Assembly (NCBI GenBank): GCA_965223855.1
Contig: CBDCXM010000009.1
Coordinates: 336,142 to 400,141 of the forward strand
DNA from: Candidatus Multivoradales bacterium
GTDB lineage: Bacteria > Acidobacteriota > Thermoanaerobaculia > Multivoradales > JAHEKO01
Reading direction: 5' to 3'
DNA length: 64,000 nucleotides
This document shows positions 597 through 28,685 of the stretch, one piece after another. The notes beneath the pieces were generated by a model. It was not told where the DNA came from, ran no database searches, and saw only the letters and a program-made list of their open reading frames with translations. A program made the position numbers and the translations under genes. Within the stretch, counting starts at the first letter, position 1. Each line of letters opens with the position of its first letter.

Positions 597-1889
597 CTAG
601 CGCGGCAGGGGTCGAACCACGACCTGAAGGAGCTCGCTGCCTCTTTGCACCTCGAAGGGGATCGGTCGCCCCGATTCGAGATAGGGGGTCAGCAGCCCCA
701 TCGGGTCGTCGCCGAACGCTTCGCCGGCGACTCTCAACAACAGGTCGCCGGTTCGAAGCCCGTCTTTCTCGGCCGCGCTGCCAGGCGCGACGGCCGTCAC
801 CTCGACGGATCCGTCCGGGCCCGGATCCAGCTGGACGCCGAGTGAGAACTTCGGGCGGTACTCGTCGAGGAGAAGGTCGCCGAGGGCGCGGGAGACCTCG
901 ACAAAGCGTGTGTCGCCGTCCGCCATCCTCGGCTTGTTGGCGTTGGTCAGCGTGACGACGAACGACTCTGCCATCGGCCCGCGGTAGACGAACATCTCGT
1001 AGCCGTAGGCGTCGCCGTTGCGGTTGGCGCCCGGACCGGGGCCGAAGAAGCGCTCGGCCCACTCGGGTTCGAGGATCTTCCCGTCGCGCAGGGCGGTGAG
1101 GAAGCGCCCGGTGTCGCCGGTGGTCGAGGTCTGGCCGCCGCTCCCCATCACCAGCCAGGAGGTCGGTCCCCACCACGGGGGTGCGTTCACTTCGCCGTCG
1201 CTCCGGTTGCCGTAGCCGATCGCCAGCCGCTCCTCCGGTATCGGATCGCCGTTGAAATCGGTGTCGGCCATCTCGGCGGGCCCGTAGATGTGCTCGCGGG
1301 TGTATTCCTGGAAGCTCTCGCCGCTCACGATCTCGACGATCGCCGCCAGCACCCCCCAGGCGGAGTGGGAGTGCTCGTCGCCCTCACCGGGAGGGAAGAG
1401 CAGCTCCTGAGCGAAGATGCGCCGCATCGCCTCGTCGCGATCGATCCAACTGTGATCCGGATCCCGGTCCCCCGGCAGGTCGTGAAAGTCCGGCAGGCCC
1501 GAACCGCCGGTCATCAGGTGGCGGATCGTCGTCGCCCGCTTGTCGGGAGGGACGGCATCGAAGAAGCGGGTGATCGGGTCGTCGAGCGAGAGCCGCCCTT
1601 CCTGCGCGAGCTTGAGGATCGCGACGTGGGTGAAGTCGATCGGTTGCGAGCCGACCGCGAAGATCGTCTCGGGGGTCACGGCAATCCCCTGTTCGCGATT
1701 GGCGAGGCCGTATCCGGCATCGAGGATGGTCTCGCCGTTTCTCACGACGAGCACGGCGCCGGTGAAACCGTCCTCGGCCTGCTCGTCGAGCCAGTCGGGA
1801 AGGGTCGCCCACGAGAGGGGCGTCTCGGCCGTCGCCGCAGTCGCGGCGACGCACAGGGCGATCGACAGGATCGTTCGGGTCTTCGACAT
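597..1889 (-). CDS. beta-lactamase-family serine hydrolase with C-terminal PDZ domain, secreted
   Basis: Start set at internal ATG 1889 (MSKTRTILSIALCVAATAATA signal peptide, GGGAGGAAG Shine-Dalgarno upstream) rather than the ORF-track start. Beta-lactamase/PBP-like fold (FAVGSQPIDFTHVAILKLAQEGRLSLDDP). The usual SxxK is SQPI here, so the Lys is missing. C-terminal PDZ-like GDLLLRVAGE segment. Confidence 0.65.
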   Translation of the reverse strand: MSKTRTILSIALCVAATAATAETPLSWATLPDWLDEQAEDGFTGAVLVVRNGETILDAGYGLANREQGIAVTPETIFAVGSQPIDFTHVAILKLAQEGRLSLDDPITRFFDAVPPDKRATTIRHLMTGGSGLPDFHDLPGDRDPDHSWIDRDEAMRRIFAQELLFPPGEGDEHSHSAWGVLAAIVEIVSGESFQEYTREHIYGPAEMADTDFNGDPIPEERLAIGYGNRSDGEVNAPPWWGPTSWLVMGSGGQTSTTGDTGRFLTALRDGKILEPEWAERFFGPGPGANRNGDAYGYEMFVYRGPMAESFVVTLTNANKPRMADGDTRFVEVSRALGDLLLDEYRPKFSLGVQLDPGPDGSVEVTAVAPGSAAEKDGLRTGDLLLRVAGEAFGDDPMGLLTPYLESGRPIPFEVQRGSELLQVVVRPLPR

Positions 1890-1976
1890 GGGGCTTCCTC
1901 CCGGGCGGACGGTCTGCTTGCGTCGTCTTATCGCTGAGATCAACTCACGACGGCTCGATCGGTTCCGGCGGCCTCG

Positions 1977-11838: not shown

Positions 11839-11973
11839 CCTAGAACGAGGCCGCAGAGACTTCGGTCGAAGTTCTCGGAACTTTCCCCTCCGAGGTCGCG
11901 TACTCAACTACAGAGCAGCAGTTGTGCTGACACCGCCGGCGGCTGGGAGACCGCCACGAAAAGGGTCGAGACA

Positions 11974-13218
11974 ATGAGTGACGAGACGAAGCAGACGATC
12001 GACGCAGCCACGACGACTTCCGTTCTGGAGGGCTCGAGCCTCTGGCGCCAGTGGGCCGCCTTCATGGCGCTGACGCTGGCGCTGATGGCCGGCGGGCTGA
12101 CGCTCACCGGCTGCGCCGGTGAAGCCAACGGCGACGACGAGGCCAAGGCCGAAGCGTCGGAGGACGGCGAGAAGAGCGCCGACGGCGAAGGTGAAGACGA
12201 GGAGGGCGACGAGACAGCCGCCATCCCCGTAGAGGTCGAGCCGGTCGCCACCGGCACCGTCGCCGCCTACGTGAGCGCGACCGCCAACCTGGTCGCCGAG
12301 AACGATGTCGCGGTGCTCTCCGAGGTCGAGGGCCGGGTCACCAGCCTTTCGGTCGACGAGGGGCACTACGTCCGCCAGGGGCAGGTGCTGGCGCGGCTCG
12401 ACCCGAGCGACGAGCAGATCGCGCTGACCAAGGCGGAGCTGCGGCACGAGAACGCCAAGCTCGCCTACGACCGCAGCGAGGACCTGATGGCCAAGGAGCT
12501 CGTCAGCCGCGAGGAGCACGACAAGCTGACGGTCGACTTCCAGATCGCCCAGCAGGAGCTGGCCGAGGCGAAGTGGGCGCTGGCGCAGACCGTCATCAAG
12601 TCGCCGTTCTCCGGTCGAGTCACGCTGCGCGAAATCCAGCTCGGTCAGCACGTGCGCCCCGGCGATACGCTGTTCCAGATCACCGACTTCGATCCGCTGA
12701 TCGCCCGCATCTACCTCTCCGAGAGCGACATCGTCGGCCTCACCGAGGGAACCGAGACGCGAATCCAGCTCAACGCCGATCCGAGCGTCGTGCTCGCCGG
12801 CCGGATCCGCCAGATCTCGCCGATCGTCGACACCGCCACCGGCACCGTCAAGGTGACGGTCGAAGCGAACGCGGTCTCGGGCGACGGTCCGCCGCCGGTG
12901 AGACCGGGTAGCTTCGTGTCGATCCACGTCGTCCGCGAAACCCACGAGAACGCCCTGACCGTGCCGCGCGAGGCGGTGCTGCGCGAGCTGCAGGCGACCC
13001 ACGTCTTCGTCACCGACGGAGCGACCGCCACCAAGAAGGCGATCCAGCTCGGCATCGAGGACGGCAATCGCGTGCAGGTGCTCGCCGGGCTCGAGGCTGG
13101 AGAGAACGTCATCGTCGCCGGCCAGGGCGGCCTGCGCGAGGGGACGAAGATCCGCGTCCTCGGTGACGAGAGCGACGCGACCGCCGAGACCGACGTCGAC
13201 GTCGCGTCCGCGAGCTGA
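11974..13218 (+). CDS. efflux RND transporter periplasmic adaptor subunit (membrane fusion protein)
   Basis: HlyD/AcrA-like coiled-coil plus beta-barrel regions. Lipobox LTGC. Immediately precedes the RND permeases. A later internal ATG start is also possible. Confidence 0.75.
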   Translation: MSDETKQTIDAATTTSVLEGSSLWRQWAAFMALTLALMAGGLTLTGCAGEANGDDEAKAEASEDGEKSADGEGEDEEGDETAAIPVEVEPVATGTVAAYVSATANLVAENDVAVLSEVEGRVTSLSVDEGHYVRQGQVLARLDPSDEQIALTKAELRHENAKLAYDRSEDLMAKELVSREEHDKLTVDFQIAQQELAEAKWALAQTVIKSPFSGRVTLREIQLGQHVRPGDTLFQITDFDPLIARIYLSESDIVGLTEGTETRIQLNADPSVVLAGRIRQISPIVDTATGTVKVTVEANAVSGDGPPPVRPGSFVSIHVVRETHENALTVPREAVLRELQATHVFVTDGATATKKAIQLGIEDGNRVQVLAGLEAGENVIVAGQGGLREGTKIRVLGDESDATAETDVDVASAS

Positions 13219-13229
13219 GGAGCGAAGCC

Positions 13230-16200
13230 GTGCGCCTGATCGAGTTCTCCCTCACCCGTCGGGTCACCATCGCCATGGGCGCAGTCGCCCTGGTGCTGTT
13301 CGGCCTCGTCGCCTTCCAGCGGCTGTCGATCAACCTGCTGCCCGATCTTTCGTATCCCAGCCTTACGGTCGAGACCCGCTATCCGGGCGCCGCCCCGGCC
13401 GAGATCGAGAGCCTCGTCACGAGACCGATCGAAGAGGTGATCGGCGTCGTCTCCGGCGTCCAGCGGCTGACCTCGACCTCGCGCCCCGGCCTCTCGCAGG
13501 TGACGCTCGAGTTCGACTGGAAGCGCGACATGGACTTCGCCGCGCTCGACGTGCGCGAGAAGCTCGATCTGATCCGCCTGCCCCAGCAGGCGTCGAAGCC
13601 GGTGGTGCTGCGCTTCGATCCGGCGAACGACCCGATCCTGCGGCTCTACCTGACCGGCGGCGAGAGCCTCTATCAGCTCCGCTACGTCGGTGAGGAGGTC
13701 GTCAAGAAGGACCTCGAGTCGACCGAGGGGGTCGCCGCGATCAAGGTCAACGGCGGCTACGAGGAAGAGATTCAGGTGCGGGTCGACGAGGGCAAGCTCT
13801 CGCTCGTCGGGCTCACCATCCAGGACGTCAACACCAAGCTGCTGCAGGAGAACGTCAACCAGGCGGGCGGCAGCCTCTACGAATCGGAAGCGCGCTATCT
13901 GGTGCGCGCCAACAACGAGTTCGAGGGCCTGCCGGACATCCTGCAGACGGTCCTCACCTCTCAGAACGGGCGCGTGGTGCGGGTCTCCGACGTCGCGCGG
14001 GTCGAGCGCGGCCACAAGCGGCGCGAGGTGATCACCCGTCACGGCGCCGAGGAGGCGGTCGAGCTCGCCCTCTACAAGGAGGGGGACTCGAACACCGTGC
14101 AGGTCGCGCGCTCGGTCAGCACGCGGCTCGCCGCGATCGCCGACGAGCTGCCCGAGGGAATCGAGATCTCGACCGGCGTCGACCAGTCGAAGTTCATCCA
14201 GGCGTCGATCCGCGAGGTGCTCTCGAACGCGCTGCTGGGCGGCTTCATCGCCGTGATCGTGCTGCTGCTGTTCCTCAAGGATCCGCGGTCGACCCTCATC
14301 ATCGGCCTGTCGATCCCGATCTCGATCGTGACGACCTTCTTCCTCATGTACCGCACCGGGACGACGCTCAACATCATGTCGCTCGGCGGTCTGGCGCTGG
14401 GCGTCGGCATGCTGGTCGACAACGCGATCGTCGTGCTGGAAGCGGTCTACAAGCACCGCGAGGCCGGCGAGAACCGCTTCGATTCGGCGCTCAAGGGTGC
14501 CTCCGAGGTCGGCCGCGCGGTCATCGCCTCGACGCTGACGACGGTCGCCGTCTTCCTGCCGGTGGTGTTCCTCGACGGTGTCGCGGCGCAGCTCTTCCGC
14601 GACATGGCACTCACCGTGTCGTTCTCGCTCGTCGCGTCGCTGGTGATCGCTCTGACGCTCATTCCGATGCTCGCCGCGGCGCTCGGGGCCACGCGGCTCG
14701 AGTCGGTGCCGACGCCACCGGCCGCCGGCCGGCGCATCGCGCGCTCCATCTGGCGTGTCTTCGTCTGGCTGCCGAGCCTGGTCCTCAAGGGGCTGCGGAT
14801 CGCCGGCGGCTGGGTCGGCCGTGTGCTTACGATCGCCGCGAAGCCGATCAGCAAGGCGTTCGACGGCGTCCTCGGCACCGTGTCGAACGCCTATCCGAAG
14901 CTCCTGGGTTGGGCGCTCGCGCGGCGCATGCTCGTCATCGTCGTCGCGCTGGTGGTCTTCATCGGCGCCCTCGCGCTGGTTCCGGGACTCGGCTTCGACC
15001 TCATCCCCGCCTTCTCGCAGGGTGAGTTCAGCTTCCTCGTCGAGCTGCCGGAAGGGACGCCGCTCGAGGTGGTCGATCGCTACGTCGCCGAAGTACAGGA
15101 CGTGGTGGCGGACGATCCGCGGGTCGGTTCGCTGTCGAGCATCGCCGGCGGACGCGGGCTGAGCCTCACCAACACCGGCACCGAGGGCGAGAACACCGCC
15201 CGCATCCAGGTGCTGATGGCCTCCGGTACGACGCCGCAGGACGAGCAGGCGGTGATCACGGCACTGCGCTCGCGGTTCGACGAAACGCCGGAGGTCGCCT
15301 ACAAGTTCGAGCGGCCGACCTACTTCAGCTTCCGCACCCCGATCGAGGTCGAGATCTACGGCGACCAGCTCGAGGATCTGCACTCGGTGGCCGCCGACGT
15401 GCGCGGCCGGCTGGCCGAGCTGCCCGGCCTCGTCGACGTCAAGTCGTCGGCCGAGCTCGGCAACCCCGAGCTCCAGGTGCGCTTCGACCGCGCCCAGTTC
15501 GCGCAGCTCGACCTGGCGATCGGGACGGTCGCCGACACCATCCGCAACAAGGTGCAGGGCGAGGTCGCGACCCGGCTGACCGAGGGCGACCGCGAGATCG
15601 ACATCGTCGTCCGCTCGGTCGACGTCGGCCAGGCGAAGGTGCGCGACATCGAGAACTTCATCGTCGCGCAGCGCCACGGCGTGCCGGTCTACCTCAAGTC
15701 GATCGCCGACGTGTCGATCGTCGCCGGCCCGAGCGAGATCCGCCGTATCGGCCAGAAGCGCGCCGCGGTGGTCTCCGCCAATCTCGACGGCCGCGACATG
15801 GGCGCGGCGGCGGCCGACGTCCGCCGGGCGCTGACCGAGGTCGTTCTGCCCGCCTCGACCACGGTGGCCGTGAGCGGTCAGGAAGAGGAGCGCACGAGTG
15901 CTCAGAGCTCGCTCCTGATGGCGATGGCGCTGGCGATCTTCCTCGTCTACCTGGTGATGGCCTCGCAGTTCGAGTCGTTCCTCCACCCGTTCGTCATCAT
16001 CTTCTCGCTGCCGCTCGGTGCGATCGGCGTCGTGATGGCGCTCGGCGTCACCGGCAACAGCGTCAACATCGTGGCGATGATCGGCGCCGTCATGCTGGCC
16101 GGCATCGTCGTCAACAACGCGATCGTCCTCATCGACGCCGTCAACCAGCGGCGGCGCGCCGGGATGGCGAAAGAGGAAGCGCTGCTGGCCGCCGGCTCCG

Positions 16201-16520
16201 ACCGCCTGCGGCCGATTCTCATGACGTCCGCAACGACCGTGCTCGGCCTGCTGCCGATGGCCCTCGGCCTCGGCGAGGGGGCGGAGCTTCGGGCGCCGCT
16301 CGCGATCACCGTGATCGGCGGTCTCACCGTGGCGACGCTCCTGACCCTGATCGTCATCCCGGTGGTCTACGCCACCTTCGACCGCCGCGAGTCGCTCGCC
16401 GAGGAGGATCTCGGAGAGCCCGAGGACGACGACCAGGCGAAGGCCGAAGATGACGAAGCCGCCGCAGACGAGGAACCGGACCTCGACGACGCCCTCGAAG
16501 CCGGAGCCGCCGGCGCCTGA
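13230..16520 (+). CDS. RND efflux transporter permease (AcrB/HAE1 family)
   Basis: GTG start with GAGGA Shine-Dalgarno, 11 nt after the adaptor gene stop. 1096 aa, 12-TM AcrB-like architecture with two large periplasmic loops. Confidence 0.85.
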   Translation: MRLIEFSLTRRVTIAMGAVALVLFGLVAFQRLSINLLPDLSYPSLTVETRYPGAAPAEIESLVTRPIEEVIGVVSGVQRLTSTSRPGLSQVTLEFDWKRDMDFAALDVREKLDLIRLPQQASKPVVLRFDPANDPILRLYLTGGESLYQLRYVGEEVVKKDLESTEGVAAIKVNGGYEEEIQVRVDEGKLSLVGLTIQDVNTKLLQENVNQAGGSLYESEARYLVRANNEFEGLPDILQTVLTSQNGRVVRVSDVARVERGHKRREVITRHGAEEAVELALYKEGDSNTVQVARSVSTRLAAIADELPEGIEISTGVDQSKFIQASIREVLSNALLGGFIAVIVLLLFLKDPRSTLIIGLSIPISIVTTFFLMYRTGTTLNIMSLGGLALGVGMLVDNAIVVLEAVYKHREAGENRFDSALKGASEVGRAVIASTLTTVAVFLPVVFLDGVAAQLFRDMALTVSFSLVASLVIALTLIPMLAAALGATRLESVPTPPAAGRRIARSIWRVFVWLPSLVLKGLRIAGGWVGRVLTIAAKPISKAFDGVLGTVSNAYPKLLGWALARRMLVIVVALVVFIGALALVPGLGFDLIPAFSQGEFSFLVELPEGTPLEVVDRYVAEVQDVVADDPRVGSLSSIAGGRGLSLTNTGTEGENTARIQVLMASGTTPQDEQAVITALRSRFDETPEVAYKFERPTYFSFRTPIEVEIYGDQLEDLHSVAADVRGRLAELPGLVDVKSSAELGNPELQVRFDRAQFAQLDLAIGTVADTIRNKVQGEVATRLTEGDREIDIVVRSVDVGQAKVRDIENFIVAQRHGVPVYLKSIADVSIVAGPSEIRRIGQKRAAVVSANLDGRDMGAAAADVRRALTEVVLPASTTVAVSGQEEERTSAQSSLLMAMALAIFLVYLVMASQFESFLHPFVIIFSLPLGAIGVVMALGVTGNSVNIVAMIGAVMLAGIVVNNAIVLIDAVNQRRRAGMAKEEALLAAGSDRLRPILMTSATTVLGLLPMALGLGEGAELRAPLAITVIGGLTVATLLTLIVIPVVYATFDRRESLAEEDLGEPEDDDQAKAEDDEAAADEEPDLDDALEAGAAGA

Positions 16521-16548
16521 CCGCCGGCCGATCGACAAGGAAGCCGCG

Positions 16549-19500
16549 ATGAGCCTGCTCAAACTCTCCGTCAGCCGCCCCGTCACCACCGCGATGGTGC
16601 TGGTGAGCATCCTCGTGCTCGGGGGTATCGCCGCCGCGCGCCTGCCGCTCGCCTACCTGCCGGAGATCGACGTGCCGTTCATCGGCATCCAGATCCCCTA
16701 CCCCAACTCGAATCCGCAGCAGATCGAGAAGGAGATCGTGCGGCCGGTCGAGGAGCTGCTGGCAACGCTGCCGGGAGTCAACTCGCTCAACGCCAACGCC
16801 ACCGCCGATCAGGCGGAGTTCTTCCTCGAGTTCGACTGGGGCAACTCGATCGACATCGTCCGCATGCAGGTGGGCGAGAAGATGGACCAGATCAAGCCCG
16901 AGCTGCCGGCCGGCATCGGCGAGGTCTTCATCTTCTCGTTCAACACGAGCGACATCCCGGTGGTCGAAGGGCGCATCTCAGCCCCCGGGGTCGATCTCTC
17001 CTCGAGCTACGAGCTGATCGAGGCGCGGGTGCTCAACCGCCTGCGCCGCATCCCCGGCGTCGGCCGGGTCGACCTCGACGGCGTGCTGCCGCGCGAGATC
17101 TTCATCGACCTCGTACTCGACGAGATCGCCGCCCACAACGTCGACGTCAGCGCGCTGATCGGCAAGCTCCAGGGGGCGACCTCGAACCTCGTCCTCGGTC
17201 AGGTGGCGGACGATCAGATGAGCTTCACCGCCCGCGCCGTGGGTGACTTCGAGTCGGTCGAGGAGATCCAGACCCTCGCCATCGACCAGCGCGGGCTGAC
17301 CCTCGGCGACATTGCCGAGATCTCCTACGAGCAGCCGCCGATCGGCCACGGCCGGCATCTCGACGGCTCCTACGCCGTCGCCCTGATGGTGTTCAAGGAG
17401 TCGACCGCCAACACCGTCGACGTCGCCAACGAGGTGTTGCGGGTGCTCGACGAGGACATCGGCGCCGATCCGCTCCTCCAGGGGATCAACGTCTTCATGT
17501 GGGACAACCAGGCGGACGCGATCACCAACGGCGTGCAGGGGCTCCTGATGGCGGGCATCATCGGCGGCCTGCTGGCGGTGCTGTGCCTCTACTTCTTCCT
17601 GCGGCGGCTCGATTCGACGCTGATCGTCTCGCTGTCGATCCCGTTCTCGATCATCGCCGCGTGCGGCATCCTCTACTTCCTCGGCGGATCGCTGAACATC
17701 CTGTCGATGATGGGGTTGATGCTCGCGGTCGGCATGCTGGTCGACAACGGCGTCGTGGTGCTCGAATCGATCGACCGCCACCACCGGACGGAGAAGAACC
17801 GCAAGAAGTCGGCGCTCCAGGGCGCCCGCGAGGTCGTCGTGGCGGTCGGCAGCTCGACCCTCACCACCGTGATCGTCTTCCTGCCGCTGATCCTCGGCGG
17901 CAAGACCGACCTCGCCGTCTGGCTCAAGGAGATCGGGGTCGCGATCACCATCGCCCTCGGCTGCTCGCTCTTCACCGCGATGACGCTGATCCCGCTGATG
18001 TCGGCACACTTCCTCGGCCGCAAGAGGTCGAAGCCGATCCGGGCGATGTCGAAGCTCGAGGATCGCTACGCGGCCATCCTCGGATGGACCCTCACCCGGC
18101 CGTGGAAGACGGCGGGCCTGATGATCCTCTTCGCGGTGCTGGGTGTGGTGCCGATGATGACCGGCATGGTCGACGCGGCGATGTTCTCCGGCACGCTCAA
18201 CGAGCGGATCTACTTCAGCTACGAGTTCTCGGAATTCGCCTACAAGTCGCAGGCCGAAGACGCGGTCGACGTGGTCGAGAAGGCGATCGAGCCCCACAAG
18301 GTGCGGCTCGGCATCGATTCGGTCTACAGCTACTACACCTCGAACGAGGCGGGCACGACGCTGACGCTGGCGCAGAAGAACCTCTCGGACGACGAGGTCA
18401 AGGAGCTGCGCAAGCAGGTGCGCGAGGTGCTTCCGGAGATGGCGGGCGTCAAGTTGCGCTTCGACGAGGAGTCGGACTCCGGCGGCAACTCGACCTACTT
18501 CGCCGTCAAGTTCTTCGGTCAGGACACCGACGTGCTGCTCGATCTGGCGACCGAGGCGGCGCGGCGCATCGACACCGTCGAGGGGGTCGAGGACGTCCGC
18601 ACCCCGTTCAAGGAGGCGCAGCGCGAGATCCAGGTGTCGATCGACCGCGAGAAGGCTACCCGCCAGGGGCTGACCGCCCAGGACATGGCGAACATCTTCT
18701 CCTTCACCCTCGGCTCGATGCGGCTGCCGCGCTTCGACGCCGGAGATCGCGAGGTCGACACCTGGCTGGCGCTGCGCATCGAGGACCGCGAGAACCTCGA
18801 GGATCTCAAGAAGATCCAGATCGGCGGTAGCGACGACCGGCCGGTGCGGCTGGGCGACGTCGCGAACTTCCAGTTCGTCAGCCGCCCGCGCGAGATCCAG
18901 CGCGAGAACCGCAAGGTGCGGATGGCGGTGCGCGCCACCTACGAGGGCGAGGACTGGGAGAGCACCCAGAAGGAGATCGAGGGGCTGATGAACGCCTTCG
19001 AGCTCCCCGCAGGCTATTCCTGGAGCTGGAACGACCGCATCATCGAGCAGGGGCAGCAGAACGCCCAGATGGGGGTCAACATGCTGCTGGCGCTGCTGCT
19101 GGTCTACATCGTCATGGCATCGCTCTTCGAATCGCTCGCCCAGCCGTTCGCGATCCTCTTCTCGATCCTCTTCGCCCTCCCCGGAGTCTTCTGGGCGCTG
19201 GCGCTCACCGGCACCTCGTTCAACCTGATGGCGCAGATCGGCATCCTCATCCTGATGGGGATCGTCGTGAACAACGGCATCGTGCTGCTCGACCACGTGA
19301 AGAGGCTGCGCGACAGCGGCCTCACCCAGCACGACGCCTTCCTCCGCGCCGGCCGCGAGCGGCTGCGGCCGATCCTCATGACCGCCTCGACCACCGTCAT
19401 CGGCCTGCTGCCGCTGGCGGTGCGCGGCCCCAACGCCGGCGGCGTCTTCTACTACCCGCTGGCGCGCACCGTGATGGGGGGGCTCATCTCCTCCGTCATC

Positions 19501-19641
19501 CTGACCCTCATCATCCTCCCCTTCTGGAGCGTCTTCATCGAGAAGGGCGTCGCCTGGCTGCGCAACATCTGGCGCCTGTCGGGCGCGCGCAAGAGCGACG
19601 GCGAGGCGGGGGTGCCGGTGGCGGCCGAGACGACGAGCTGA
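16549..19641 (+). CDS. RND efflux transporter permease, second tandem paralogue
   Basis: ATG 16549 (MSLLKLSVSRPVTTAMVLV), 29 nt after the first permease stop. AcrB-like throughout. Confidence 0.85.
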   Translation: MSLLKLSVSRPVTTAMVLVSILVLGGIAAARLPLAYLPEIDVPFIGIQIPYPNSNPQQIEKEIVRPVEELLATLPGVNSLNANATADQAEFFLEFDWGNSIDIVRMQVGEKMDQIKPELPAGIGEVFIFSFNTSDIPVVEGRISAPGVDLSSSYELIEARVLNRLRRIPGVGRVDLDGVLPREIFIDLVLDEIAAHNVDVSALIGKLQGATSNLVLGQVADDQMSFTARAVGDFESVEEIQTLAIDQRGLTLGDIAEISYEQPPIGHGRHLDGSYAVALMVFKESTANTVDVANEVLRVLDEDIGADPLLQGINVFMWDNQADAITNGVQGLLMAGIIGGLLAVLCLYFFLRRLDSTLIVSLSIPFSIIAACGILYFLGGSLNILSMMGLMLAVGMLVDNGVVVLESIDRHHRTEKNRKKSALQGAREVVVAVGSSTLTTVIVFLPLILGGKTDLAVWLKEIGVAITIALGCSLFTAMTLIPLMSAHFLGRKRSKPIRAMSKLEDRYAAILGWTLTRPWKTAGLMILFAVLGVVPMMTGMVDAAMFSGTLNERIYFSYEFSEFAYKSQAEDAVDVVEKAIEPHKVRLGIDSVYSYYTSNEAGTTLTLAQKNLSDDEVKELRKQVREVLPEMAGVKLRFDEESDSGGNSTYFAVKFFGQDTDVLLDLATEAARRIDTVEGVEDVRTPFKEAQREIQVSIDREKATRQGLTAQDMANIFSFTLGSMRLPRFDAGDREVDTWLALRIEDRENLEDLKKIQIGGSDDRPVRLGDVANFQFVSRPREIQRENRKVRMAVRATYEGEDWESTQKEIEGLMNAFELPAGYSWSWNDRIIEQGQQNAQMGVNMLLALLLVYIVMASLFESLAQPFAILFSILFALPGVFWALALTGTSFNLMAQIGILILMGIVVNNGIVLLDHVKRLRDSGLTQHDAFLRAGRERLRPILMTASTTVIGLLPLAVRGPNAGGVFYYPLARTVMGGLISSVILTLIILPFWSVFIEKGVAWLRNIWRLSGARKSDGEAGVPVAAETTS

Positions 19642-19825
19642 AGTCGCTAACCCGGACTTCTCACCAGGTTTCTGCTCCAGGTCCGTGACTTGTTGGAGAT
19701 ACGAGGCTCTTCGTCCTGAGCAGCGCAGGCGTAGCCGTAGCTACATCGAGGAGCGCAGGGACGGAGAAACGCAGTAGATCCAGCAAGATACGGGCCTGGA
19801 GTAGGGAGCTGGTGAGAGGTCCGGG

Positions 19826-21151
19826 CTAGGGGACGGTCACCGACCAGGCCGAGGTGTCGCCTGACTCGAAGCCGTCTTCGAAGATCGGCGGGAGTCTGAA
19901 CACCCAGGCGATGCCGTGGGGCTCGAACTGGATGTTGTTGGAGTTGCCGACGAGGAGCCGGGAACCGCTGAATGAGAGGGCCTCACCGAATGTGTCGAGG
20001 ATCTGGCCGACCGGCGCTCGGAAAGTACCTACCTCTACCCATTCACCGTCGATGTAGCGGTTGTCGTAGACGATCCCCTGCCTGATCTGAGCGCCGTTGT
20101 CGCTCTCGCCGCCTACGAGGGCGATGTTGCCCCTCAGGGCCACGGCAGTGCCGTAGTAGTTGCCGTTGTTGGCGGCGTCCGACGCCAGGAGCTGTTGTTC
20201 TTCGCTCCAAACACCTCCTGAGCGACGGAAGACGTAGGCGGCACCGGGGCCGGGACCGCTTGGCGAAGGGTGCTGTTGCGCGCCAGCGAGCAGCGCATCT
20301 GGCTCCAGGGAGACAGAGAAACCCAGCATGGTGGCAAGAGTCCCGTCAGAAGCGCCCAGCTTCTGCTGAAACTGCCAGTTGGAGCCGTCGAAGGTGTAGA
20401 CGAAGACCGCACCGGAGTTGAGACCTCCGGTGGTGTCGTTGCTGAAGTCGCCCACGACGAGGTCGTCCCCTCGCAGATCTACGGCCCAGCCGAAGCTGTG
20501 GCTACTGGACGGAGCCGAGTCGGTCAACTTCTGCCTCTCGATCCACTGATGGCCTATTCGCTCGAAGTAGTAGACAGCTCCAGGGGTGGCCGTGTCGGCC
20601 CCGGCCCGCATGGCTCCCACAGCCAGCCGGTCTCCCTCTAGTGCAAGAGCCCTCGCGAAGTGGTCCTGTTCGTCGCTGTCTGACCCTCGAATCTTGTCGA
20701 CCTCGATCCAGTTGTCACCTACGCCGCGAATGAAGTAGTAGAAACTCCCCTGGTTCAATTCGTCGTCGTCGAACGGTGCCCCGACGATGGCTACGCTCCC
20801 ATCGATGGCGACCGCAACTCCGAAACCGTCGCCCTCAGCGCCATCGGAAGCTGTAAGCATCGCGTCCTCAACCCAGGTTTCACCTTCGCGCTTGAAGATC
20901 CATGCGGCGCCCTGCTCTTCCTGTCCGCCGATGTCAGCTCCGTTGGCGCCGACGATGGCGTAGTCGCCATCGATATCGACTGCCGAACCGAACCTCCAGC
21001 CGCTCTGTTGCATGACACCTTGCAGCTGAGCCTCGGCCTCCCATTGGCCGCCGGAACCTTCGGAGGCTGCGGCCAGGCCTACAACGTTCGCGACCGGCAG
21101 GAGCAGTAGCGTGAGCGCCCGTCGCTTGGCTCTAGGGGCAAACGGTTCCAT
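19826..21151 (-). CDS. FG-GAP repeat (integrin-alpha-like beta-propeller) secreted protein
   Basis: Signal peptide. Repeated FG/GAP-like blocks (GDYAIVGA, AAWIF, GAVYYF). Lies in a region of lower GC. Confidence 0.55.
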   Translation of the reverse strand: MEPFAPRAKRRALTLLLLPVANVVGLAAASEGSGGQWEAEAQLQGVMQQSGWRFGSAVDIDGDYAIVGANGADIGGQEEQGAAWIFKREGETWVEDAMLTASDGAEGDGFGVAVAIDGSVAIVGAPFDDDELNQGSFYYFIRGVGDNWIEVDKIRGSDSDEQDHFARALALEGDRLAVGAMRAGADTATPGAVYYFERIGHQWIERQKLTDSAPSSSHSFGWAVDLRGDDLVVGDFSNDTTGGLNSGAVFVYTFDGSNWQFQQKLGASDGTLATMLGFSVSLEPDALLAGAQQHPSPSGPGPGAAYVFRRSGGVWSEEQQLLASDAANNGNYYGTAVALRGNIALVGGESDNGAQIRQGIVYDNRYIDGEWVEVGTFRAPVGQILDTFGEALSFSGSRLLVGNSNNIQFEPHGIAWVFRLPPIFEDGFESGDTSAWSVTVP

Positions 21152-22280
21152 CGTCGATGGTCAAGCGTACATCCCATCGGGTGAAGCGAGCCCGAATGTT
21201 GCCTTGGGAACTTGGCCAGTTCGTGAGCCTGAGGGTCCATGGGCCGTCCGCTACCGTGCCTACGAAGACATTGTCTAGCAGCACCAATGGCGTCAGCTCG
21301 TCCTGGTCGTAGGCAACTTGGAGCTCGTCAGCCGGCTCGAAGTCTTTCAGGAGAATCGACTGACCCTGAGGTCCTGTCAGGGCAACGGAGAATCTCGTAT
21401 CCGCCGGCACACTGAAGCCGCGAAGCAAATAGACATCAGCGTCTGAAACCGTGCCGCCGATCGGATCTGATGCGAACGTCAGTGTCGCCTCGGCCCACTC
21501 TCCGGGCTCGAGCACGCCCTCGTTCATCGAGGATGTCTCGATCTGCCTCAGATGGTCGAACTTCACGTTCTGTGTCCGCCTGAACGTAGGGAATCCTGAG
21601 TCGTCCGAGGCCACCTCGATCTGCGCCGTCCTCACGATGGGGCAGTCCTCGGTGTCGTCGAAGGTCATCGCGATATCGACCGGAGGCTCGGGCGCATCGA
21701 CCGGGGGCAGCGTGTGCGTTGAAGGCGAGGTCGCCGGGACGTTGTCGAAGAGAATCCATCCCGCACCGCCAGCCGAGAGGGTGACGTCCTGCGGCACGAT
21801 CCATCGGTTTCTCGGGTCGTAGGTGATCTGCGTTCCGGTGGGAAGGCCAAGGCCACCGTCTCCAGTCAGGTCTTTCGGTACAGAAAGTGTGAAGCCCTCT
21901 GTACCGACGAACACCCGATGGAGGATCGGTTCCCGAGTCTCGTAGGTGTAGTCAAAAAAAGCCAACGTTTCTTCGAAGACACCCGGACCCAGGCTGATGT
22001 TGTTGTTGGGCGCCACCTCGAGACTCACCTCCTGCCCCTCCCCTAGTGTGCCCGAAGTGGGCCCGCTCACCACATCGAAGAAGCTCGTGATCGGCTGGGG
22101 GTGAGACTTGACTTCCCATGGGAGCGGTGTGCCATCCGGAGTCCCGTCGAACGGCACGGCAACGTCGAAGGTCAGACCCGGGAAGTCGCTGGCGTCAGTA
22201 GGAGGGCCGTAGAACTCTGCTACGGGTCCGCTGAAGCTCTGATTCACCTGAATCCCGAGCGCAGGGATCGTTGTGTTCAT
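21132..22280 (-). CDS. hypothetical protein, possible proprotein-convertase P-domain-like C-terminus
   Basis: 382 aa with no obvious signal peptide. C-terminal GPWTLRLTNWPSSQGNIRARFTRWDVRLT resembles the P-domain consensus. 20-nt overlap with the downstream FG-GAP gene. Low GC. Confidence 0.4.
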   Translation of the reverse strand: MNTTIPALGIQVNQSFSGPVAEFYGPPTDASDFPGLTFDVAVPFDGTPDGTPLPWEVKSHPQPITSFFDVVSGPTSGTLGEGQEVSLEVAPNNNISLGPGVFEETLAFFDYTYETREPILHRVFVGTEGFTLSVPKDLTGDGGLGLPTGTQITYDPRNRWIVPQDVTLSAGGAGWILFDNVPATSPSTHTLPPVDAPEPPVDIAMTFDDTEDCPIVRTAQIEVASDDSGFPTFRRTQNVKFDHLRQIETSSMNEGVLEPGEWAEATLTFASDPIGGTVSDADVYLLRGFSVPADTRFSVALTGPQGQSILLKDFEPADELQVAYDQDELTPLVLLDNVFVGTVADGPWTLRLTNWPSSQGNIRARFTRWDVRLTIDDGTVCP

Positions 22281-22324
22281 GCTCGACCCGAGGGGTCCCC
22301 ATCCGACGCCCAGGGCACCGTCAA

Positions 22325-23659
22325 CTATGGGTCGAACGGGGCCCAGGCGTCAGCTACCTGTCGGTAGCGGTCACTGAGCCAGTCGGCGATGGCGGCCCGC
22401 TCCAGCTTGCGCTGTCCACCTGCTCGCGCGGGGGATCCGGCGTGACCGCGCACGCGCCAGCTCTCGGCAACGTCGCCGTCGTAGGCCGTCTCCGGAGCCT
22501 TCGCAACCTCGCGGTAGGCGTCACGGAACGGCTCCCCCTTCGCCACCCGCTGGTAGACGGCATCGGTTGCCGCGCTCGCAGGTTCGATCGCCGAGCGGCA
22601 GCGCTCGCGATCGACCTCGAGCCCTTCGAGCACCGGTACGAAGGTCACCAGCAGGTCGCGCGCCAGGGTCATCCCTTCGAGGAACGGCGCCTTGGTGAGC
22701 TGCAGGTCGCGGTGGTAGCCGGCGCCGACGCCGCCGTAGATATCCCCGATCTCGCCGACCAACGAGCGCAACCGCGCCGCCGCGGCGCGGGCGATCTCGA
22801 GCGGGTCGGGGTTGCGTTTCTGCGGCATGATGCTCGAGCCGGTGGTGGTCGCGGCGCCGAGGCGCAGGAAGGCGTGCTCCTCGCCCGACCAGGCGATGAG
22901 GTCGCGGGCCAGTCGGCCGAGGTCGGTGGCGATCGCCGCGGCGACTCCGAGCACCAGCGCCTCGGTGCGGCCACGGTCGCTCTGGACGGCGACGGTGTTG
23001 ACCTGCACGCGGTCGAAGCCGAGCAGCTCGGCGACCCGCTCGCGGTCGAGCGGCAGGGCAACGCCGTAGCCGGAGGCGCTGCCGAGCGGCGAGCGGTTGA
23101 GGTGGCCCCAGGCGGTCTCGATCCATGGCTGGTGGTCGAGCAACGCGTCGACCCAAGAGTCGAAGTAGTGGCCGAGCGTCGTCGGCATCGCCTGCCGGGT
23201 GTGGGTGTAGCCGGGCATGCTGGTCTCGGCGTGCTCCTGCGCCAGCCCGGCCAACGCGCCGACGGCCTCGAGGAGGGCCTTGTCGAGCTCGAGCAGCGCC
23301 TCGCGCCCCCACAGCCGCAGCGCCGCGATCACCTGATCGTTGCGGCTGCGGCCGGTGTGGATCCGCTTGCCGGCGTCGCCGAGCCTGGCCGTCAGCCGGT
23401 TCTCGATCGCGGTGTGCCCGTCCTCCTCTTCTGAGGCGATCGTGAAGTCGTCGTCCGCGGCGATCGCCGCGAGCTCCCGGCACAGCGCCTCCGCCTCTTC
23501 GGCGGAGAGCACACCGATCTCGGCGAGCATCGTTGCGTGCGCCGCGCTCGCCAGAGCGTCGTGCGGCACCAGCAGGAGGTCGAGCTCCGGGTCGCGACCG
23601 ACGGTCAGTCGGGCGACGGCGGCCGACAGCGGCTCACCCTTGTCCCACAGCCGGCTCAC
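22325..23659 (-). CDS. argH: argininosuccinate lyase
   Basis: Fumarate-lyase signature GSSIMPQKRNPD. GTG start at 23659 overlaps the argG stop (GTGA). The Arg-rich N-terminal extension of ORF 22325..24808 is an artefact. Confidence 0.85.
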   Translation of the reverse strand: MSRLWDKGEPLSAAVARLTVGRDPELDLLLVPHDALASAAHATMLAEIGVLSAEEAEALCRELAAIAADDDFTIASEEEDGHTAIENRLTARLGDAGKRIHTGRSRNDQVIAALRLWGREALLELDKALLEAVGALAGLAQEHAETSMPGYTHTRQAMPTTLGHYFDSWVDALLDHQPWIETAWGHLNRSPLGSASGYGVALPLDRERVAELLGFDRVQVNTVAVQSDRGRTEALVLGVAAAIATDLGRLARDLIAWSGEEHAFLRLGAATTTGSSIMPQKRNPDPLEIARAAAARLRSLVGEIGDIYGGVGAGYHRDLQLTKAPFLEGMTLARDLLVTFVPVLEGLEVDRERCRSAIEPASAATDAVYQRVAKGEPFRDAYREVAKAPETAYDGDVAESWRVRGHAGSPARAGGQRKLERAAIADWLSDRYRQVADAWAPFDP

Positions 23660-25003: not shown

Positions 25004-26404
25004 TCAGTCCCCCCGGGTCTCGCGCTCCTGGAAGCGCTCGGCGAGCGAGCGCAGGAAACCGCTGACCCACGGCTTGATGGCGTCGAGCTCCTCGAGCAGC
25101 TGGTCGCGGCTGACCCGCTCGACGACCGTCTCTTCGAGCGTCACGACGCTCGCGGTGCGCGGCTCCGAGGTCATGATCGCCGTCTCGCCGAAGCACTCGC
25201 CCGGCCCGATGGTGCGGAGCGACACCTTCTCCCCGTCGATCTCCTTGAACACCTCGCACGAGCCGCTGGCGATGATGTAGGCGTGCTCGCCGGGGTCCCC
25301 CTCCCGCATCAGCAGATGCCCCGCCTCGAAGGTCTCGAGCGGCAGGCTGCCGCCGCGCATGAAGCCGACGATGTCCTGACGCAGCTCGACGACCGTCTGC
25401 TGCCTGTCCTCGGGTTTGCGCGCCATCGCTTTCTCGAGGATCCGCACCAGCTCGCGCGGTGCTCCGGCATCGTCCGGCAGCGGGGTGAAGTGGCGCTGGC
25501 GGGCCCGCAGGATCACCGTCTCGCTGGTGCGCCCCTCGTAGGGCGGCCGGCGGGCGACGAGGAAGTAGAGCATCGCGCCGACGGCGAAGATGTCCGCCCG
25601 GGCGTCCATCTCTCCCCCGGCCGCCTGCTCGGGCGACATGTAGCCCGGGGTACCGATGACCCTCCGCCCCCAGATCCGGGTGAACGTGCTCGACACCGGG
25701 TCGTCGATCTTCGCCAGCTCGCCGTCGGGGTCCGCCAGCCTCGCCAGCCCCCAGTCGACCAGGTAGACCTCGCCGAACTCCCCCACCATGACGTTCTCCG
25801 GCTTGACGTCGCGATGGACGACCCCTCGCTTGTGGGCGAAGGCGAGGGCGTTGCAGACCTTGACGACCACCTCCAGGAGGTCGAAGAGGGCGCCCCGCTC
25901 GATCGGCCCGGGCGGCAGCTCACGGACGAGCTCGGCGTAGGTCCGCCCCTCGAGGAGCTTCATCGTGAAGTGGAGCCGCCCGTCCTCGGTCCTTCCCAGA
26001 TCGTGGACCGGCACGATGTTGGGATGCTGCAACTGACCGGTGATCTGAGCCTCCCTCAGGAACGACTGGACCGCCTGGCGTTCGTCCTCCATCTCCGTCC
26101 GCAAGAGCTTCCGCGCCAGCCGGCGCCTCAGGGTGCGGTCGTGCAGCAGCTCGACGATCGCCATCCCGCCGCTGCCGATCTCCTCGCCCGTCTCGAAGCG
26201 CTCCTCGTCAGGCGGCAGGACGTTGGCCACCAGATCCGCCTTCGCCCGTTCGTCGAGCCGTTCCGGGGGGTCGTCGCGGGAACCGAGGAGACGCTTGAAC
26301 CAACCCTTCCGCGCACCGGAACCCTCCACGCGCGTCCCCTCGAGCACGGTCGCCGTACCGCCGTGTGTGCCCGATCCGGAACCGCTGGAGCGACCTTTCG
26401 TCAC
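25004..26404 (-). CDS. Ser/Thr protein kinase with C-terminal cyclic-nucleotide-binding (CAP-like) domain
   Basis: Kinase subdomains (GSGGMAIV, HRDVKPEN, DWG, GTPGYMSPE), then a cNMP-binding domain (FGETAIM...RTASV). GTG start. Confidence 0.75.
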   Translation of the reverse strand: MTKGRSSGSGSGTHGGTATVLEGTRVEGSGARKGWFKRLLGSRDDPPERLDERAKADLVANVLPPDEERFETGEEIGSGGMAIVELLHDRTLRRRLARKLLRTEMEDERQAVQSFLREAQITGQLQHPNIVPVHDLGRTEDGRLHFTMKLLEGRTYAELVRELPPGPIERGALFDLLEVVVKVCNALAFAHKRGVVHRDVKPENVMVGEFGEVYLVDWGLARLADPDGELAKIDDPVSSTFTRIWGRRVIGTPGYMSPEQAAGGEMDARADIFAVGAMLYFLVARRPPYEGRTSETVILRARQRHFTPLPDDAGAPRELVRILEKAMARKPEDRQQTVVELRQDIVGFMRGGSLPLETFEAGHLLMREGDPGEHAYIIASGSCEVFKEIDGEKVSLRTIGPGECFGETAIMTSEPRTASVVTLEETVVERVSRDQLLEELDAIKPWVSGFLRSLAERFQERETRGD

Positions 26405-26507
26405 CGGCGAATCGTATCAACGGCTTCGCCCCACGACTGTGGCAAACGAGGCTTCTCTCGCGACCTGCGCCAGGTCGTCGTCTCCCCGTCTCGTAACATG
26501 GCCGACA

Positions 26508-28685
26508 GTGAAGAAACGAGCCAAGGCCGGGGCTCCGAGCGCCCTGCGCGACTGGGCGCCGGTGGGCCTTTCGCTGGTGCTCCTCGTCGCCGCTATCGTC
26601 GCGACGGTCGCCGAGCCGACCGCGATGACGACCCTGCGTCACGCGGCGTTCGACGCCTACCAGCGCCTGCAGCCCCGCGAGTACCGGCCGGCCCCGGTGC
26701 GGGTGATCGACATCGACGAGGAGAGTCTCGACCGGCACGGCCAGTGGCCGTGGCCGCGGACGACGCTCGCCACGTTGATCGAACGGCTCGACGAAGCCGG
26801 AGCGCGCTCGATCGCCCTCGACGTCATGCTCGCCGAGCCGGACCGCACCTCGCCACAGCTCGCGCTCGAGAGTTGGGCCGCGGACCCGGCCGTCCGGGAC
26901 CTGGTGGCGCGCCTGCCCGATCACGACGAGGCTCTCGAGAAGAGGCTCGCCGCCTCGCCGGTAGTCACCGGCTTCATCCTCGATCAGGAGACCCAGGGAG
27001 AGACGCCGCTCGAGAAGGGGAGGATGGTGCTCGCCGGCGATCCGGCCGCCGCCTTCCTGCCGCCGTTTCGCGGTGCCGTCACCTCTCTGCGAGCGTTCGA
27101 GGCCGCGGCGGCGGGCAACGGTGCCCTCAACATGATCCCGAGCAACGACGGCATCGTCCGTCAGCTGCCCCTGTTGCTCGGCCACGGCGGAGCGGTGCGG
27201 CCCGGTCTGGCCGCCGAGGCTCTGCGGGTCGCCGAGGGCGCCGACAACTACGTCGTCAAGGCGTCGGGGGCGAGCGGCGAGGGGCGCTTCGGCGGCCGCA
27301 CCGGCATTGTCAACGTGCGGATCGGCGACCTCGAGCCGATCGTCACCGACGCGCGCGGCGCTGTCTGGCTCCACTACTCGGACCCGGTCCCCGAGCGCAC
27401 GCTCCCGGCCTGGAAGGTGCTGGCGGGCGACGTCCCGGAAGGCGCTCTCGAAGGGGGCATCCTCTTCCTCGGCACCTCCGCCGCGGGCCTCCACGACCTG
27501 CGCCTCGACCCACTCGGCCGGATCGCCCCGGGAGCAGAGGTGCACGCCCAGGGGATCGAGCAGATCCTGCAGGGGACCTATCTGACGAGGCCCGACTGGG
27601 CGCGGGCGGCCGAGATCCTCTTCATGGTGGCGATGTGGTTCGTGCTCGTCGCGCTGATCCTGCGCTTCGGCGCGCTGCCGGCGGCGGTGATCGGCATCGC
27701 GACGATCGCCGCCGCCTACCTCGGCTCGTGGTTCGCTTTCGATCGTCTGCGGCTGCTGCTCGATCCAACCTTTCCCTCGCTGTCGGCGCTGTCGATCTAC
27801 TTTGTCTGCTCGGTGGCGCAGCACTGGCGCGCGGAGCGCGATCGCACCTGGATCCGCGACGCCTTCTCGAGCTATATCTCGCCCAATCTCGTCCGGCACC
27901 TGATCGACAACCCCGGCGATCTCGCTCTCGGCGGCGAGCGACGCGAGTGCAGCTTCGTGATGACCGACCTCGAGTCGTTCACCACACTGGTCGAGAACCT
28001 CGAACCGACGGTCGCCGTCAGCCTGCTCAACGAGTACCTCGACGGCATCGTCGACATCGCGCTGGCGCGCGACGGCACCATCGACCGCATCGTCGGCGAC
28101 GCGGTAGCGGTGATGTTCTCGGCGCCGGCGGTGCAGCCCGACCACGCCGAACGCGCCGTCGCCTGCGCCCTCGAGATCGACGCGTTCGCCCGGCGCTTCA
28201 GCGCCGCCAGGGGCGAGCAGGGGGTCGAGGTCGGGCGGACGCGGATCGGCGTCAACACGGGCGTCGTCACCGTCGGCAACGTCGGCGGCGACCGGATCGT
28301 CGACTATCGTGCCCTCGGCGATCCGGTCAACACGGCCGCACGCCTCGAGACGGTCAACCGACACCTCGGTACCAACGTCTGCGTGAGCGCGGCGACCGTC
28401 GCCGCCTGCCCCGACTTCCACGGCCGCCCGATCGGACGCCTCCTGCTCAAGGGGAAATCCGAGGCGGTCGAGGCGTTCGAGCCGCTGTCGCGGGAAGAGG
28501 CGGCGGGGGCTTCGAACACGGCCTATCTGCGGGCGTTCGCCCTGATGGAGGAGGAGGCGGCGGAGGCCCCCGCCGCCTTCGACCGACTGCGGCAGCAACA
28601 CCCCGACGACCCCCTGGTCGCCCTCCACGCCGATCGCCTCGCCGCCGGCGAGACCGGCTCGACCATCGCCTTCTCCGAGAAGTAG
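26508..28685 (+). CDS. CHASE2 sensor-domain adenylate/guanylate cyclase
   Basis: GTG 26508 (alternative ATG about 110 nt downstream). N-terminal TM, periplasmic CHASE2-like domain, three TM helices, class III cyclase domain (FVMTDLESFT, RIGVNTGVVTVGNVG). The ORF-track start at 26133 is antisense to the kinase gene. Confidence 0.75.
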   Translation: MKKRAKAGAPSALRDWAPVGLSLVLLVAAIVATVAEPTAMTTLRHAAFDAYQRLQPREYRPAPVRVIDIDEESLDRHGQWPWPRTTLATLIERLDEAGARSIALDVMLAEPDRTSPQLALESWAADPAVRDLVARLPDHDEALEKRLAASPVVTGFILDQETQGETPLEKGRMVLAGDPAAAFLPPFRGAVTSLRAFEAAAAGNGALNMIPSNDGIVRQLPLLLGHGGAVRPGLAAEALRVAEGADNYVVKASGASGEGRFGGRTGIVNVRIGDLEPIVTDARGAVWLHYSDPVPERTLPAWKVLAGDVPEGALEGGILFLGTSAAGLHDLRLDPLGRIAPGAEVHAQGIEQILQGTYLTRPDWARAAEILFMVAMWFVLVALILRFGALPAAVIGIATIAAAYLGSWFAFDRLRLLLDPTFPSLSALSIYFVCSVAQHWRAERDRTWIRDAFSSYISPNLVRHLIDNPGDLALGGERRECSFVMTDLESFTTLVENLEPTVAVSLLNEYLDGIVDIALARDGTIDRIVGDAVAVMFSAPAVQPDHAERAVACALEIDAFARRFSAARGEQGVEVGRTRIGVNTGVVTVGNVGGDRIVDYRALGDPVNTAARLETVNRHLGTNVCVSAATVAACPDFHGRPIGRLLLKGKSEAVEAFEPLSREEAAGASNTAYLRAFALMEEEAAEAPAAFDRLRQQHPDDPLVALHADRLAAGETGSTIAFSEK

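Follow-up and report, generated by a model that had tools for sequence, protein, structure and literature searches.

The low-GC segment at positions 19642-22324 of a 64,000-nt stretch of the Candidatus Multivoradales bacterium genome (Acidobacteriota; contig CBDCXM010000009.1, positions 336,142 to 400,141; hereafter the window) is probably a lineage-specific insertion, an ordinary islet of accessory genes, between argH and a convergent operon of RND efflux transporters. Two minus-strand open reading frames (ORFs) of 382 and 441 amino acids (aa) fill the segment and overlap by 20 nt; together they are called the cassette below. As judged from its homologs, the 382-aa ORF is the C-terminal half of a 5'-truncated trypsin-like (S1) protease gene, broken at its argH end, and the 441-aa ORF is an intact gene for a predicted secreted FG-GAP beta-propeller. 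The same pairing of genes was found in seven other loci, and the nearest syntenic relatives carry no cassette at this site. The features on which the argument rests are the following:

22325..23656, minus strand: argH, argininosuccinate lyase (Pfam Lyase_1; nearest homolog 69% identical), at one border of the insertion
22281..22328, minus strand: 16 non-initiated codons (IVDGALGVGWGPLGSS) in the frame of the putative protease remnant, at the argH junction (tblastn of P0128 and P0141)
21132..22280, minus strand: 382-aa ORF, putative 3' remnant of a trypsin-like (S1) protease gene, with two predicted PapD/ASH-like immunoglobulin-like (Ig) domains and a furin-type P-domain
19826..21151, minus strand: intact 441-aa seven-bladed FG-GAP_2 beta-propeller gene, product predicted to be secreted (ORF, Pfam, homologs)
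19647..19829, no strand assigned: 183-nt copy of a long-hairpin repeat resembling a miniature inverted-repeat transposable element (MITE), an inverted repeat that takes up the whole space separating the RND and FG-GAP stop codons
16450..19641, plus strand: second of two tandem RND (AcrB-type) transporter genes (Pfam ACR_tran, E 1.7e-178), the other border of the insertion

Composition of the segment

The segment has a GC content of 61.95% against a mean of 68.0% for the window (z = -4.1 relative to 23 non-overlapping stretches), and the lowest-GC stretch of 2,683 nt in the entire 64 kb is the cassette region itself, with the minimum at 19624. Calculated over sliding intervals of 400 nt, GC falls from 0.66-0.69 to 0.59-0.645 across about 19600-22400 and then rises to 0.69-0.73, the borders of the dip coinciding with gene borders. 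A first-pass annotation of this DNA had described a fall from about 70% to the high 50s over the two genes and their flanks. The dip and its borders were confirmed, but the lower figure was overstated: most intervals in the dip lie at about 60-63.5% and only one reaches 59.0%. The 184-nt intergenic stretch between the convergent stops has 59.8% GC.

The sliding-window and codon-usage analyses proposed in that annotation single out both genes. GC at third codon positions (GC3) is 0.73 for the 382-aa gene (z -5.1) and 0.75 for the 441-aa gene (z -4.4), compared to 0.894 +/- 0.032 in 24 reference genes, and GC at the first and second positions is ordinary. Synonymous-codon log-likelihoods, calculated with a leave-one-out procedure, gave z values of -4.8 and -3.6, respectively. 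This deviation in codon usage equals that of an AbiEi/AbiEii pair at 61.6-63.1 kb. A second low-GC patch at 60.9-63.6 kb (GC 0.626) is the sole stretch of the window comparable to the cassette; an overlapping pair of AbiEi antitoxin and AbiEii nucleotidyltransferase toxin genes is found at 61623-63073 (Pfam E values of 2.4e-7 and 3.7e-31).

Synteny of the argH/RND junction

argH and argG lie directly upstream of the cassette on the same strand, and the MFP and RND-RND genes converge on it from the other side (Pfam). The latter group, at 11368-19641, comprises an HlyD-type MFP gene and two overlapping tandem AcrB-type RND ORFs (13230-16520 and 16450-19641), an order which is kept in loci L012, L015 and L016. 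No close relative of the host turned up in the data: the best match of its argH is 69% identical, and the named matches belong to Thermoanaerobaculia, Acidobacteriota and 'Deltaproteobacteria' metagenome-assembled genomes (MAGs). In the nearest relatives the junction is arranged as follows:

L012: argG-argH, a 65-aa ORF, convergent RND-RND-MFP; argH and the RND stop lie about 360 nt apart
L015/L016: as in L012, with a PMT glycosyltransferase gene in addition

Between L012 and the window, argH is 69%, argG 84% and the RND proteins 82-84% identical. Over L012 and L015/L016 together, the RND proteins are 79-84% and argG 84% identical to those of the window, and therefore these loci represent the same neighbourhood; the RND gene adjoining the cassette (16450..19641) shares 81-84% identity with the argH-adjacent RND genes of L012, L015 and L016. 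In the synteny check of argH-downstream regions that had been suggested, L012 and L015/L016 share the flanks of the window without the cassette.

Directly 3' of argH, these relatives carry the 65-aa ORF (L012 7691-7888, L015 8065-8262, L016 7908-8105), which has a hydrophobic N-terminus (MIELQDWVWLIVAVVWLAVKVLPRLF...) and no Pfam match. No trace of it was found in the window. Its presence in the nearest relatives, where the window has the cassette, supports an insertion. Other relatives have different genes after argH (L013/L014 and L003). Acidobacteriota MAGs with an argH of 62-64% identity were also considered as empty sites and found unsuitable because of the different gene downstream of argH (PNP_UDP_1 in L003). 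None of the window genes outside the argG/RND block is shared with cassette-bearing contigs. On the evidence of gene order, the argH/RND junction is a variable spot, and the cassette appears to be specific to the lineage of the window among those sampled. In genome annotation, the islet would be better flagged as an accessory insertion at a variable argH/RND junction.

Evidence for a 5'-truncated protease gene

In the 382-aa protein, Pfam matched a P_proprotein domain over residues 297-372 (24.7 bits with a cutoff of 21). The P-domain fold of the proprotein convertases is present, and inspection of the N-terminus (MNTTIPALGIQVNQ) showed no signal peptide or hydrophobic leader. The earlier description of a protein with a P-domain-like tail and no signal peptide was therefore correct in both points. 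It does not hold as the description of a stand-alone protein, since the ORF appears to be the C-terminal half of a protease.

Only one relative, with 37% identity, was returned by a word-indexed search of 5.8 billion proteins; a HMMER profile search across 1.84 billion representative proteins from public genomes and metagenomes found 84. Those that are complete have 670-723 aa and align to the window protein solely via their last 380 or so residues. Their first 300 residues or so match Trypsin_2/Trypsin and not Peptidase_S8 (Pfam), and the alignment showed signal-peptide-like N-termini together with the S1 motifs TAGHC (His), D[WY]A (Asp) and GxSGS (Ser). The alignment of the window ORF spans residues 1-382 at 30-40% identity, with E values of the relatives down to 1e-104 (profile search, tblastn), and the ORF starts just past the position of the trypsin domain. 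When eight full-length members were compared to the 64 kb by tblastn, each gave one match, 22328/22265-21138, and their N-terminal halves matched nowhere in the window. Neither the ORF nor any other part of the 64-kb window encodes a Trypsin_2 domain with the His/Asp/Ser triad, and the ORF is therefore not a protease.

The break itself could be located at the end of argH. The ATG of the 382-aa ORF lies 44 nt past the argH stop, and the 16 codons before it (IVDGALGVGWGPLGSS) align without gaps to P0141 (IFDGPLGSGRAQPASVF) and to P0128, with equal spacing to a PxxGLQV motif. Homology to the full-length proteases ends at 22328, and the argH stop TAG (22327-22325) falls within ATA-GTT codons of the remnant frame. 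The argH product of the window ends in ...AWAPFDP and is 3-6 residues shorter than those of ten homologs, which end in ...W.WF.AGQ or similar. Homology that runs upstream of the ATG to the argH stop, together with relatives that possess a protease domain, identifies the 382-aa ORF at the level of sequence as the 3' part of a protease gene, and the missing signal peptide is explained by the gene being cut off at the argH stop codon. By structure prediction, the remnant is composed of two PapD/ASH-like Ig domains and a P-domain (AlphaFold2, pLDDT 94.2 with an alignment of 64 sequences; Foldseek in agreement). The present label 'hypothetical protein' for the 382-aa ORF would be better replaced by a 5'-truncated protease gene.

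The FG-GAP propeller gene

In the 441-aa protein, which the first-pass annotation had described as an FG-GAP repeat protein with a signal peptide, Pfam matched seven FG-GAP_2 (PF14312) stretches (221 bits, the cutoff being 23; E 1.2e-66). Its N-terminus is signal-peptide-like by inspection (MEPFAPRAKRRALTLLLLPVANVVGLAAAS). More than 1,385 FG-GAP_2 propeller homologs were found in a protein database of public genomes and metagenomes. All organism-named matches are bacterial, and the P-domain protein belongs to the 84-member family described above; the 'eukaryote-like adhesion domains' that had been put forward as a sign of transfer thus lose their value as evidence. Searches of PDB sequences returned nothing for the propeller and nothing for the full-length protease.

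The protein ends in FEDGFESGDTSAWSVTVP, a C-terminal tail specific to its subfamily. In the form LF.DGFESGDTSAWSxTVP this tail is almost invariant in the FG-GAP_2 subfamily of 400-470 aa (window 19826-19885, homologs P0004-P0109), and it contains no transmembrane segment; of the 120 best homologs, 35 share it, scored by the pattern [DN]GFE[STDGNA]G in the 30 terminal residues. Every checked propeller adjoining a protease gene carries DGFESGDTSAWSxTVP. The tail may act as a signal for sorting or for recognition. The closest homologs of the propeller are metagenome proteins, and in a neighbour-joining tree it groups with P0004 (62% identity), the L002 gene (57%), P0006 and P0007 (50%), the last being a paralog in the same genome. 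By analogy, the product is most likely an extracytoplasmic ligand-binding or adhesion protein.

Pairing of protease and FG-GAP genes in other loci

The protease and FG-GAP genes adjoin in seven other loci, and wherever DNA downstream of a protease family member was visible, an FG-GAP_2 gene followed within a few bases, the gene in L006 being cut. The loci are arranged as follows:

L001: protease gene cut by the contig edge (P0002), then FG-GAP gene, which has a signal-peptide-like leader if its start is the GTG at 1148
L006: cut gene 8 nt past the protease gene
L007 / L008: protease gene, then FG-GAP gene
L010, L011: protease gene, then FG-GAP gene
L017: protease gene, then FG-GAP gene
L018: protease gene, then FG-GAP gene, with an overlap of 19 nt compared to 20 nt in the window

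This recurrence argues that the pair is a conserved bacterial operon, judged from sequence and gene order, and neither a chance pair nor 'eukaryote-like' DNA. Among the loci examined, only L002, which holds the 57% homolog, has no protease gene. A 215-aa ORF upstream of its propeller gene was considered as the protease counterpart and discarded, as it is unrelated to the remnant and has no Pfam match.

L007 and L017 are two separate cassettes in one genome (assembly GCA_973787205.1), and the operon can therefore be present in multiple copies. In L018 (732-2537), the protease gene is split by a stop within the GHPA|RxPxKAE motif into ORFs of 125 and 473 aa, followed by an intact FG-GAP gene; the interruption could be an error of assembly or else another instance of a decaying protease gene.

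A Tryp-(FG-GAP) fusion protein has been recorded in Streptomyces avermitilis (PMC2605481) and is an independent link between trypsin and FG-GAP modules. In literature searches, no description of a protease-propeller operon was found. The operon is a recurrent, uncharacterised combination of a secreted S1 protease with an Ig-Ig-P-domain tail and an FG-GAP propeller with an invariant C-terminal tail, in which a protease-substrate or partner relation is testable.

Hairpin repeat in the flank

The low GC of the flank is accounted for by the hairpin repeat which occupies it. Its 56-nt arms, at 19647-19702 and 19774-19829, form one long imperfect hairpin between the convergent stops, with a minimum free energy (MFE) of -98 kcal/mol for the RNA (z -8). 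In a homolog in L002 (8398-8598; MFE -127, z -14), both bases are replaced in 16 of 71 pairs, with no pair disrupted. Further copies were detected with a covariance model in L004 (94 bits), L003 (85 bits) and at 411-607 of the window (55 bits), the scores of the five copies ranging from 55 to 226 bits; no copy was detected with it in L012-L016. The family, about 185 nt in length, is represented by five copies in four genomes:

Window, 19647-19829
Window, 417-600
L002, 8398-8598
L003, 3424-3621
L004, 4325-4520

The apical part is conserved among the five copies. In their alignment, compensatory changes were seen in 35 of 67 pairs, a pattern that suggests, as far as can be read from these sequences, that the hairpin as such is under selection. 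CTAG is present at 8 of the 10 termini (consensus CTAGCC[T/C]G...C[A/G]GGCTAG). In both window copies, the right-hand CTAG holds a minus-strand TAG stop, at 19826-19828 for the propeller gene and at 597-599 for an ORF at 597..1943. No Rfam match was obtained for 19000-23000. The repeat fits, by analogy, a MITE-like element inserting at CTAG with duplication of TA, or could be a structured RNA. It is a genome-wide repeat, separate from the cassette, and represents a family new to Rfam whose CTAG ends coincide with TAG stop codons.

Elsewhere in the window, a Ser/Thr kinase gene fused to a cNMP-binding domain adjoins an opposite-strand CHASE2-adenylate/guanylate cyclase gene (25004-28685); the two may form a cyclic-nucleotide signalling pair.

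Origin and expression of the islet

The 2.7-kb lineage-specific insertion between argH and the convergent RND operon would derive from the conserved bacterial operon encoding, in this order, a Sec-exported S1 protease of about 700 aa (catalytic domain, two PapD/ASH-like Ig domains, furin-type P-domain) and a Sec-exported seven-bladed propeller. In the intact operon the propeller gene lies immediately downstream, often with an overlap of a few bases, and the tail DGFESGDTSAWSxTVP is almost invariant. In the window the protease gene is cut at about residue 280-320 of the full-length protein, with loss of the signal peptide and the whole catalytic domain, and argH, which has lost its last few codons, now stops at a TAG that comes from the remnant. 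Exactly this arrangement would result from one deletion that began in the last argH codons, removed the 65-aa ORF and ended within the protease gene; a one-step illegitimate insertion of a partial cassette is an alternative to it. The hairpin repeat would have inserted separately, at the CTAG which holds the FG-GAP stop codon and forms the distal border.

Horizontal acquisition had been proposed in the first-pass annotation. It is favoured by the outlying composition and codon usage and by the absence of the cassette from the junction in L012 and L015/L016, while the low cassette GC3 in other genomes and the missing mobility hallmarks speak against it. With moderate confidence, we infer a foreign origin through horizontal or at least secondary acquisition.

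Several observations weigh against this history. The argH genes of L012 and L015 are 78% identical and thus nearer to each other than to that of the window; loss in their common ancestor is therefore equally parsimonious on synteny alone. Cassette GC3 lies below that of the flanks in other genomes as well (L007, 0.83-0.87 versus 0.94-0.96; L006, 0.81 versus 0.98; L002, 0.78 versus 0.83-0.92). Part of the dip is therefore a trait of the family, milder in those genomes than in the window, and composition by itself is a weak argument for recent transfer. There is no tRNA gene in the window, and neither flanking direct repeats nor an integrase or mobility gene among the neighbours checked. The remnant is undecayed, with no frameshifts or stops, and differs at 5 of 55 family-conserved columns (typical members of that alignment, 0-12%), which may indicate that it is recent or still selected. 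Finally, the window propeller falls outside the clade of protease-linked propellers in the neighbour-joining tree (44-47% identity), and its L002 relative is unpaired.

One alternative is that no horizontal transfer took place, an old cassette having been lost from the argH/RND junction in the L012/L015 branch and its low GC3 reflecting weak codon bias and poor expression. The recurrence of lower cassette GC3 relative to the flanks in L001, L002, L006 and L007 fits this explanation, as do the 50% paralog within the genome itself, the divergence of the FG-GAP gene from its nearest homolog (62%), which is about that of argH from its own (69%), the position of the window as outgroup to L012 and L015, and the fact that mobility genes and att-like repeats were not found. 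However, no larger GC3 deficit was seen than that of the window cassette (-0.15), which is as large as in the AbiE toxin-antitoxin genes, and these form a typical mobile accessory module. That a rearrangement took place at the site in the lineage of the window is shown by the truncation and by the altered end of argH, and the conserved 65-aa ORF of the relatives is missing there. An old cassette lost elsewhere is thus possible but doubtful.

Another reading considered was that the 382-aa protein functions by itself, as a non-catalytic module made up of two Ig-like domains and a P-domain, which selection would have retained, for instance as a chaperone or partner for the propeller. Against such a module stands the junction with argH, where homologous codons continue upstream past the ATG and into the argH stop, which is what a break would leave and a designed start would not; no clear Shine-Dalgarno sequence was seen before the ATG by inspection, and the signal peptide is missing where the aligned full-length members have signal-peptide-like N-termini. 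The ORF is nevertheless intact, its fold is predicted with a pLDDT of 94, and family-conserved residues are kept as in full-length members. Database members of about 366-406 aa also start near the same boundary (P0127, P0129, P0138, P0142), but among short members P0002 (L001) is cut by a contig end and P0131 is a piece of a split gene. We regard a stand-alone module as unlikely, and the truncated protease gene as the preferred reading of the ORF.

A more far-reaching proposal joins several of these elements. The pair would be a dedicated, so far undescribed extracytoplasmic processing system, in which the S1 protease with its Ig/P-domain extension recognises or cleaves the propeller tail DGFESGDTSAWSxTVP, the window being a natural 'protease-less' variant that keeps the recognition module; separately, the CTAG hairpin would be a new Acidobacteriota family of structured elements targeting TAG stops. 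This proposal is speculative and, taken as a whole, improbable.

That the junction of argH and the half protease is an assembly chimera or a sequencing error is very improbable: nothing favours it directly. The source is a single 3.2-Mb contig, and the related locus L018 has an in-frame protease stop that is possibly an error. Flank synteny (argG-argH, RND-RND-MFP) is as in the relatives, so that any misjoin would have to lie within conserved gene order; in addition, the reading frame of argH closes with a usable stop, and the FG-GAP side is continuous.

Concerning expression of the inserted genes, a simple consensus scan revealed no sigma-70-like promoter in the region and no minus-strand terminator in the interval from argH to the remnant. 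The simplest source of transcript is therefore read-through from argGH, and the FG-GAP gene is most likely transcribed in this way. Given the 20-nt overlap, translation of the propeller gene may be coupled to that of the remnant ORF, which could help to keep the latter open. The remnant is predicted to fold, probably without a protease-related function; its role may at most be that of a leader whose translation maintains expression of the overlapping FG-GAP gene. Where the cassette is intact, the propeller may be processed by the protease or serve as its docking partner, a relation that would be lost in the window. These findings leave current understanding in place.

Comparison with known systems

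In its atypical composition and in the variable content of its junction (65-aa ORF; 65-aa ORF and PMT gene; cassette), the segment is like the small genomic islets or 'flexible' hot spots found between conserved operons. It differs from them in having no integrase, tRNA gene or att-like repeats and in that one of its cargo genes is truncated.

Its hairpin repeat can be compared to MITEs of the IS630/Tc1-mariner type, which use a CTAG target with TA duplication. The size of about 185 nt, the terminal inverted repeats, the CTAG termini and the presence of multiple copies are shared features, whereas no transposase partner was identified for the hairpin and its arms carry many compensatory changes (35/67 pairs).

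With the full-length S1 protease family (P0125, P0126 and P0128 among others), the 382-aa ORF shares the extension of about 380 aa and the position upstream of an FG-GAP gene, but it lacks the signal peptide and the catalytic domain. Proprotein convertases such as kexin and furin combine an S8 subtilisin domain with the P-domain, whereas in the relatives described here the P-domain follows an S1 trypsin fold, and in the window no catalytic domain is left. The combination of S1 domain and P-domain is an unusual, not an exotic, architecture, since a 2008 survey of prokaryotic serine proteases recorded P_proprotein solely with subtilisins (PMC2605481).

FG-GAP repeats of the Vibrio cholerae proteins Bap1 and RbmC have been linked to attachment to the matrix and to surfaces (PMC7841849). 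These FG-GAP/VCBS matrix adhesins have the FG-GAP propeller in common with the window protein and may be regarded as its functional analogues. Unlike them, the window propeller has no VCBS or lectin domains and carries the subfamily-specific C-terminal tail. With its seven repeats and an N-terminus that is signal-peptide-like by inspection, it belongs with the bacterial FG-GAP_2 proteins, dozens of which share its size of 400-470 aa.

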